Source of the DNA: Eledone cirrhosa
Taxonomy: Eukaryota
Assembly: GCA_964016885.1 (NCBI GenBank)
Contig: OZ024741.1
Coordinates: forward strand, 290,036,001-290,100,000
Reading direction: 5' to 3'
DNA length: 64,000 bases
Each line of letters opens with the position of its first letter. Position 1 is the stretch's first letter. Positions 44,646 to 45,894 of this stretch are shown piece by piece. The notes under the pieces were generated by a model. It was not told the DNA's origin. It ran no database searches and was given only the letters and a program-made list of their open reading frames with translations. Made by a program: the position numbers and the translations under genes.

Positions 44646-45105
44646 ATAACTTGTGTGTTACACCTCTATTCTTTTAACTATATATATATATATATATATA
44701 TATATATATATATATATATTTAAATATATATATATATATATATATATATATATATATATATATATATATATATATATATATATATATATATATATATATA
44801 TATATATATATAAAAACAAATAACGAAACGAAATTAAATTTCGTTTCGTTTGTAACTCACTTTTGTATGACTGACGCTTAAACAATTAAGTTAAAGATGT
44901 ACATCCATATATGTATACTGAAATACTAGTATGTATATGAATACACACACGTATACATATGTAGATGTACCAAGTTTTTTCACTGGTCACTTTACTGTGA
45001 GTGGCCAGCTATTCTGTATGTAAACACACAGACAAACCGGTTTTTAGAGTCATACTGGTTTTTGAGGAAACACCTTTCCTCTATTCTCCAGAAAGCCAGA
45101 CAAGG

Positions 45106-45150
45106 AATATTGAACTAGTTTCGTTGTTGTTACAACTCATCAGCAATATT
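45106..45150 (-). ncRNA. Type I hammerhead ribozyme, array B copy 1
   Basis: Minus: AATATTG-CTGATGA-GTTGT aaca ACAAC-GAAA-C TA GT-T-CAATATT; perfect 7-bp stem I. Confidence 0.92.
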
Positions 45151-45572
45151 TACCTATCTTCCGGCCTCTCTAGAGAATCGTAAAAGCACATATCGTTATA
45201 TGCTTTTTCTATGAAAATTAGTAGTGGGCAGACTAATTTGCATAGAGTGTGAGTAAGTACCGGTTCAACGGAGACGATAAAAACAAATAACGAAACGAAA
45301 TTAAATTTCGTTTCGTTTGTAACTCACTTTTGTATGTCTGACGCTTAAACAATTAAGTTAAAGATGTACATCCATATATGTATACTGAAATACTAGTATG
45401 TATATGAATACACACACGTATACATATGTAGATGTACCAAGTTTTTTCACTGGTCACTTTACTGTGAGTGGCCAGCTATTCTGTATGTAAACACACAGAC
45501 AAACCGGTTTTTAGAGTCATACTGGTTTTTGAGGAAACACCTTTCCTCTATTCTCCAGAAAGCCAGACAAGG

Positions 45573-45617
45573 AATATTGAACTAGTTTCGTTGTTGTTAC
45601 AACTCATCAGCAATATT
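45573..45617 (-). ncRNA. Hammerhead ribozyme, array B copy 2
   Basis: Identical to 45106-45150, shifted +467. Confidence 0.92.
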
Positions 45618-45894
45618 TACCTATCTTCCGGCCTCTCTAGAGAATCGTAAAAGCACATATCGTTATATGCTTTTTCTATGAAAATTAGTAGTGGGCAGAC
45701 TAATTTGCATAGAGTGTGAGTAAGTACCGGTTCAACGGAGACGATAAAAACAAATAACGAAACGAAATTAAATTTCGTTTCGTTTGTAACTCACTTTTGT
45801 ATGACTGACGCTTAAACAATTAAGTTAAAGATGTACATCCATATATGTATACTGAAATATATATATATATATATATATATATATATATATATAT

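Follow-up and report, generated by a model that had tools for sequence, protein, structure and literature searches.

Three tandem arrays of non-coding units, each unit carrying a hammerhead ribozyme, lie in the window (the whole 64,000-nucleotide stretch of Eledone cirrhosa DNA analysed here, which is AT-rich, microsatellite-laden animal DNA). In our reading all three, here called A, B and C, are non-LTR retrozymes that owe their mobility to a Penelope-like element acting in trans and targeting (TA)n, probably of Neptune-like type. Penelope-driven, TA-primed insertion of the arrays is very probable. A circular RNA as template for that reaction is somewhat favoured, and the whole chain of events, circle included, stands likewise a little above an even chance. 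The element class and the model of target-primed cDNA synthesis round a circular template to yield more than one unit are already published (PMC7229834, PMC7761336), as is the link between Penelope elements and retrozymes (bioRxiv 10.64898/2026.07.22.740005). What is added is a junction rule, a candidate start site and marker variants. A search of openly available main texts found neither a retrozyme from octopus nor any analysis of the junctions that retrozymes form in (TA)n.

The arrays and their ribozymes

Positions 1-2669, minus strand: array A, at least 5.73 identical 466-bp units with six hammerheads; the 3' end lies beyond the window
Positions 30065-30904, plus strand: array C, 1.6 copies of a 526-bp unit, with two type I hammerheads that have a long stem II
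Positions 44810-45859, minus strand: array B, 2.25 copies of a 467-bp non-coding retrozyme unit
Positions 45573-45617, minus strand: type I hammerhead B1, C3 at 45610, predicted cut after 45580
Positions 45106-45150, minus strand: type I hammerhead B2, C3 at 45143, predicted cut after 45113
Positions 30319 and 30840, plus strand: predicted cuts (after these positions) of the C hammerheads, with long stem II
Positions 45113-45579, minus strand: the sole complete cut-to-cut monomer of B (the predicted circle), which holds the variant base 45337

A descriptor search places type I hammerheads six times in A and twice in B (minus strand) and twice in C (plus strand); the window yields 14 descriptor matches, against none in 50 shuffles. 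The narrower form of the descriptor (stem II <45 nt) misses the C ribozymes, while the widened form finds both and, by requiring a longer stem II, loses four matches (23950, 24408, 34028 and 46273). B1 has a 7-bp stem I, a 5-bp stem II and a palindromic minimal stem III. Helix III of the array hammerheads is minimal and palindromic, and PMC4209133 describes ribozymes of this form as dependent on a dimer. The B hammerheads match Rfam HH9 (E 2.3e-7, below the gathering score). No match in the window reaches Rfam gathering level, and an Rfam search of C returned nothing hammerhead-like. Solo hammerhead-like relics at 23350(-), 24408(+), 49849(-), 50747(-) and 51025(+), several of them recognised by eye only, terminate at a microsatellite ~100-230 nt beyond the core. 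Ribozyme calls in such relics depend on the descriptor, the motifs at 23350, 25140, 27489 and 49849 having been seen by eye alone.

The units of A and B are near-clonal and those of C are not. No difference was found in 2203 compared positions between A units, and a single one (45337) in 583 between B units, where it generates the unit-to-unit pattern A-T-A at 44870/45337/45804. Between the two C repeats there are 3 substitutions and 4-5 indels, mostly of the homopolymer or dinucleotide kind; seven pairs of palindrome arms elsewhere in the window differ by 25 substitutions and 1 indel (Fisher p 0.001-0.004 against the C repeats). Across all three arrays the cut-site junctions are seamless and identical within their own array in 10/10 cases. 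That the arrays or their perfect identity are artefacts of assembly (consensus homogenisation, chimeric reads) is hardly credible: 100% internal identity of A and of the palindrome at 44257, and the homopolymer/dinucleotide bias of the C differences, are what such artefacts would produce, but A and B show 41% divergence, ribozyme and compensatory pairs being conserved, and other palindromes have arms only 94-98% identical and one-sided tails.

Class and relations

By the sequence criteria of PMC7229834 and bioRxiv 10.64898/2026.07.22.740005, A, B and C are classed as non-LTR retrozymes, for which self-cleavage and circular RNA are predicted. A complete type I hammerhead recurs in at least two consecutive units of each array. 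The units are 466-526 bp long, with a GC content of 0.35-0.36, and non-coding: neither B nor C contains a frame that reaches 110 aa, and the only one in A is a low-complexity frame of 114 aa. A stable monomer fold is predicted, and a Penelope-like relic with a hammerhead, described below, co-occurs. Where a target-site duplication is present it is expected to exceed 4 bp; the flanks being pure TA, a duplication there has no definable limits. Cut-to-cut monomers folded as circles give z scores of -9.0 (B), -7.2 (A) and -4.8 (C) relative to 25 shuffles each, and the linear B monomer -11.8. The independent folds of A and B share 30 of about 155 predicted pairs (a comparison of two sequences, made without a control); eight of the shared pairs have changed on both sides, two on one side, and 20 are unchanged.

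The likeness to metazoan non-LTR retrozymes (Cervera and de la Pena 2020, PMC7229834; PMC7761336; Li et al., bioRxiv 10.64898/2026.07.22.740005) extends to tandem units that are non-coding and contain a single type I hammerhead whose helix III is weak and palindromic, to a GC content of ~35%, a highly structured monomer and co-resident Penelope elements. Units of 466-526 bp are slightly longer than the 150-450 bp first described, and lie within the 51-972 bp range of Li et al. The hammerhead repeats of newt and axolotl satellite 2, set beside the arrays by description rather than by sequence, are also tandem, with a dimer-dependent hammerhead, and give rise to monomer, circle and multimer RNAs (PMC7229834). 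As candidates for autonomous Penelope-like elements the arrays were rejected: no ORF combining reverse transcriptase (RT) and GIY-YIG domains lies in, or attached to, B, C or the visible part of A.

A and B are homologous (alignment score 261.5, against a mean of 69.5 and a maximum of 97.5 for shuffled sequence; 59% identity over ungapped columns), whereas C aligns with A or B no better than shuffles do. A search of the window for further copies of A/B or C produced low-complexity matches only, and a search for related DNA in phages and prokaryotic genomes produced none, as expected.

Flanks, junctions and end phases

Positions 44679-44812, no strand: left TA tract of B, 134 bp, with a 6-nt interruption that is also present in the tract at 44113-44256
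Positions 45857-45894, no strand: right TA tract of B, 38 bp, followed by a dispersed repeat of ~215 bp that is 91% identical to 9043-9256
Positions 44810-44813: RNA 3' end of B (cDNA start), with 3-nt homology to the TA flank
Positions 45857-45859: 5' truncation of B, with 3-nt homology to the TA flank

The preliminary description had B as 2.25 units and C as ~1.6 units between (TA)n tracts, with A stopping in mid-unit and no array ending at a ribozyme cut, and on each of these counts the measurements bear it out. B, with its period of 467 bp, spans 2.24-2.25 units from 44810 to 45859 (a span that includes a 3-nt ambiguous junction at each end) between the tracts at 44679-44812 and 45857-45894. 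C covers 30065-30900/30904, or 1.59-1.60 units of period 526, with an interrupted TA run of ~24 nt on its left and a long one on its right. A ends within a unit after 5.73 units or more up to 2669; its visible end adjoins ~75 nt of mixed TA-rich sequence, which is not pure (TA)n, and then a long TA tract. Counted from the predicted cut, B has its RNA 3' end, where the cDNA starts, at phase 300-303 and its 5' end at 188-190; the 5' end of A is at 361, and C has its 5' end at 271 and its 3' end at 60-64.

The TA runs at both ends of B and C are not due to chance: among 55,150 placements in the window of a segment the size of B, B itself counted, 14 have them, and among 55,323 of a segment the size of C, C itself counted, 6 do. 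At the cDNA-start junction B shares 3 nt with the TA target, a match offered by 7.5% of unit positions, and C shares 4 nt, offered by 4%; there is none at the 5' end of C. In the TA tract to the right of C (30901-31160) an interruption is present three times, a block duplication within the microsatellite.

It has also to be considered that C alone might be an LTR-type element (a TRIM or an animal LTR retrozyme) consisting of a 312-bp repeat, a 214-bp spacer and a second 312-bp repeat. Its ends would then be fixed, so that 1.6 units would say nothing about rolling. Both repeats do start with TG, end with CA and contain a hammerhead. Nevertheless, nothing resembling a primer-binding site or a polypurine tract adjoins the repeats on the ribozyme strand (judged by eye, not against a tRNA set), the ribozyme is of type I, not type III, and the terminal A lies inside the TA homology; we consider this reading of C very improbable and retain that of a retrozyme array.

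The end phases had also been called arbitrary, and that part of the earlier claim is not confirmed. Only five ends are visible. Three of them are 5' truncations, which vary in any target-primed insertion, and the families to which the two cDNA starts belong are unrelated, so that arbitrariness cannot be established. The cDNA start of B, moreover, sits in a conserved block, at the 92nd percentile of A/B conservation (the top decile); the 5' end of B is at the 45th, which is average. The conserved block contains the following element:

Positions 44822-44850, minus strand: 13-bp hairpin, ~10 nt upstream (in the RNA sense) of the cDNA start of B, in a block conserved with A

The 3' end of B lies in a partly unpaired, U-rich stretch ~10 nt past this hairpin, which we infer to be a candidate element for initiation of reverse transcription. 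The cDNA start site is probably preferred rather than arbitrary, the one informative case (B, n=1) placing it just 3' of a conserved hairpin. The review PMC7761336 states that retrozymes lack any conserved motif indicative of a helper; here the cDNA start lies in a conserved block, and an octamer-like motif, which is taken up below, is conserved as well.

Each unit of A (at about 1-110) and of B (44898-44975) also contains a TA-rich self-complementary segment, and the 5' truncation of B falls within the latter. These segments are possibly captured target, and might serve as a site for nested insertion or for recombination with the flanks.

Penelope-type palindromes and probable TA priming

Positions 44257-44678, no strand: palindrome beside B at the same TA site, perfect head-to-head, with arms of ~190 bp and a one-sided tail of 33-40 nt; Penelope-type

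This is one of a number of head-to-head palindromes with unequal arms that lie in TA tracts, and in which the hammerhead motif, where visible, reads outward. An inverted copy with a tail is a structure of Penelope-like elements (PMC8557442), and the window's palindromes look like several Penelope-type families. One-sided tails are seen at 24575-24770, 24810-25244, 27165-27652, 44257-44678, 46150-46350, 50231-50555, 33640-33790, 23846-24103 and 26382-26661. The tails measure 33-100 nt, compared with a published 30-40 nt, and several have a short motif in common, by eye. In two palindrome families the same outer end is reused at two loci (33917/46150 and 2935/24578); a third copy of the second family, at 27850, ends ~15-20 nt short.

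The long arm of such a palindrome shows how the RNA continued, and this makes the short-arm junction scorable. The set that was scored comprises five of ten matches from an inverted-repeat scan plus the palindrome at 46207, with three microsatellite mirrors, 53933 (low-complexity) and 26527 (nested around a microsatellite) dropped. Five of the six short arms end at 3-7 nt of TA homology, the palindrome at 24898 being the one that fails the 3-nt test. The base rate is ~0.08 and the binomial probability 2e-5, an approximate figure because the base rate counts one side only. Initiation paired to TA, internal to the RNA and downstream of the ribozyme, is thus a local rule, and one that needs no circle.

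The 6-nt interruption already referred to lies at offsets 47/91 and 40/88 nt in the tracts 44113-44256 and 44679-44812 that flank the palindrome beside B; within the window it has only one other site (37377). The two tracts look like a 134-144-bp target duplication, of a kind that is normally invisible in microsatellites. The palindrome at 46150-46350 (46113-46380) is flanked on either side by an (AT)n(GT)n compound repeat, which may be a target duplication of ~35 bp.

Given the 3-4 nt that both cDNA starts share with TA, the recurrence of this signature in 5/6 palindromes and the presence of a Neptune-like relic in the window, the earlier proposal that cDNA was primed at a TA tract stands. 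So does its preference for reverse transcription over unequal crossing-over as the origin of the arrays, which TA junction homology, the palindrome signature and the relic all favour. The contrary case is that a single copy of 1.x units arrived and then grew at the DNA level, by unequal crossing-over or slippage involving its terminal repeats, the fraction being kept and the integer changed, for instance from 1.25 to 2.25. Growth of this kind has been proposed for retrozyme arrays in the discussion of bioRxiv 10.64898/2026.07.22.740005; if recent, it would explain the homogeneity of A, and the internally duplicated interruption to the right of C indicates that local DNA expansion does occur. 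But it leaves the first copy of more than one unit, the TA junction homology and insertion into pure TA unexplained, and we regard it as improbable. Unequal crossing-over is a modifier rather than the origin, and may have enlarged A.

A candidate helper

Positions 28630-29835, plus strand: 5'-truncated Penelope-like relic comprising an RT thumb, a degenerate Zn-finger linker and, at the C terminus, a GIY-YIG-type region, followed by a type I hammerhead (C3 at 29793)

The motifs of the relic were read by eye against PMC8557442, and its clade is assigned from that reading, not from a tree: the apparent domain order fits Neptune/Nematis as set out there. Of the 8 and 6 matches to its 296-aa frame (28696-29583), the best are to Octopus bimaculoides (55%) and O. 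vulgaris (59%). The O. vulgaris match carries an upstream RT; in the homologue P0009, RT motifs lie upstream and Pfam RVT_1 is matched at E 0.004, below the cut-off. Pfam returned no match for the relic itself (28630-29835). A 21-bp tandem duplication at 28652-28698, near the point of 5' truncation, is perhaps the product of an RT slip.

The relic represents a candidate type of helper, not being itself intact. A, B and C show no homology to its repeat within the window, and the helper is therefore proposed from target and junction style alone; against the Penelope partial tandems (pLTRs) of the window, A and B find no match and C only one at E 0.11, to the palindrome at 27477. Naiads, which are present in Octopus and target TA (PMC8557442), are alternative helpers.

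Penelope-like elements of the Neptune/Hydra/Naiad type (PMC8557442) resemble the arrays in (TA)n targeting, 5' truncation and partial tandems, and the palindromic neighbours in the window resemble them further in their inverted copies with one-sided tails. The arrays differ from such elements in encoding no protein and in having neither an inverted copy nor a tail. The Penelope-like element PAc (PMC11167929) shares with them an internal RT start downstream of the hammerhead. The start in B, however, lies 300 nt past the cut, as compared with ~85-92 nt in PAc (computed from the positions given in PMC11167929), and the junctions described here share 3-7 nt with the target, whereas the initiation site of PAc is reported to be non-homologous to the cut DNA.

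Circular or linear template

The sequence of events that we favour would run as follows. Read-through transcription of a locus with at least two units, and dimer-assisted hammerhead cleavage, would release a cut-to-cut monomer, which a host ligase would close into a circle (a step suggested by PMC7229834). A GIY-YIG endonuclease would nick a TA tract, and the nicked end would pair with UAU or AUAU inside the RNA and prime cDNA there; the junction homology is observed and the pairing is deduced from it. The RT would pass the cut site for more than one unit, likely going round the circle, and stop at a variable point; that the passage is seamless is seen in the junctions. The new end would then join the target through 0-3 nt of homology. 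The mechanism of Penelope integration is itself called undefined in PMC8557442, and the circular-template step of the retrozyme cycle is a proposal in PMC7229834 and PMC7761336.

A copy of more than one unit needs either a continuous template or jumps between templates, and the 10/10 seamless cut-site junctions argue against jumps from monomer to monomer. The preliminary description derived a circular template from the phases of the ends, and from these it does not follow; the circle is still the likelier template on other grounds, namely those seamless junctions and A, whose units show no difference over at least 5.7 repeats, while a linear template of that length would have to survive six ribozymes. 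Ribozymes of this form work best as dimers (PMC4209133, PMC7229834), and in mussel, coral and axolotl retrozyme RNA occurs mainly as circles (PMC7229834).

The principal competitor, to which we assign a distinctly lower but appreciable probability, is a linear, uncleaved read-through multimer transcribed from a tandem locus and inserted by the same TA-primed reaction, in effect a Penelope partial tandem (pLTR) in a non-coding derivative. The RT of PAc starts internally in vitro, mostly on uncleaved RNA (PMC11167929). Priming away from the cut thus requires no circle in Penelope RNAs, and a linear multimer with 5' truncation would also yield arrays of non-integer length; partial tandems and 5' truncation are standard in Penelope-like elements (PMC8557442). 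Linear multimers can persist, because many such ribozymes cut poorly (8/9 Xenopus dimers were without cleavage; bioRxiv 10.64898/2026.07.22.740005) and multimeric retrozyme RNAs are observed in axolotl (PMC7229834). Seamless junctions fit a linear multimer equally well. The 3' end of C, 60-64 nt past the cut, is within the range of the solo relics (~40-195 nt), and its repeats are heterogeneous and indel-rich; they are better explained by heterogeneous templates or by sequencing error than by a single circle copied in two passes. What tells against the linear multimer is A, which would need a long homogeneous source as well as escape from six ribozymes, and the predominance of circles in the three animals just named. 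Young TA-targeted copies with internal marker variants, such as that at 45337 in B, allow circle and linear multimer to be distinguished computationally, and the choice of start by Penelope RT to be examined in the same way.

A possible promoter and a combined reading

Positions 45703-45710, plus strand: octamer-like 8-mer kept in A and B, in an inverted repeat with a second copy at 45236

The conserved 8-mer at 45703 is here called octamer-like. Its sites are 45236, 45703, 345+466n and 50990. In A and B it forms part of an invariant inverted repeat and stands ~90-95 nt upstream of the hammerhead; at 50990 it is 35 nt upstream of the unrelated hammerhead at 51025. Newt satellite 2 has an snRNA-type octamer promoter. 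The octamer-like block is a possible internal promoter; retrozymes are said in PMC7761336 to lack an evident one.

One may go further and suppose, tentatively, that a Neptune-like RT binds the conserved hairpin of the circular RNA, primes where 3-7 nt of nicked (TA)n pair with AU repeats inside the RNA, and is able to duplicate a target stretch of well over 100 bp, as at the 134-144-bp tract duplication beside B, with the unit perhaps carrying an octamer-based promoter; this combination we hold to be doubtful. If it were true, the helper would be named, retrozyme integration would have its first start-site rule and the hypothesis of a circular RNA template would become testable from sequence. 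In octopus retrozymes, rolling-circle, target-primed reverse transcription would then have left traces that can be read from the genome.

Other elements of the window

An ARAGORN search of the window found no tRNA. A dispersed SINE-like family of ~190 bp is represented at 7088-7286 and at least 12 other sites, and a second, of ~215 bp, at 45894-46108 (adjoining the right TA tract of B) and 9043-9256. A degenerate LINE-like element on the minus strand (15047-18108) retains an RT domain (Pfam RVT_1, E 4e-21) broken by stops, and a mariner-like transposon at 10022-11339, with matches to Pfam Transposase_1 and HTH_48, is bounded by 105-bp inverted repeats at 96% identity.
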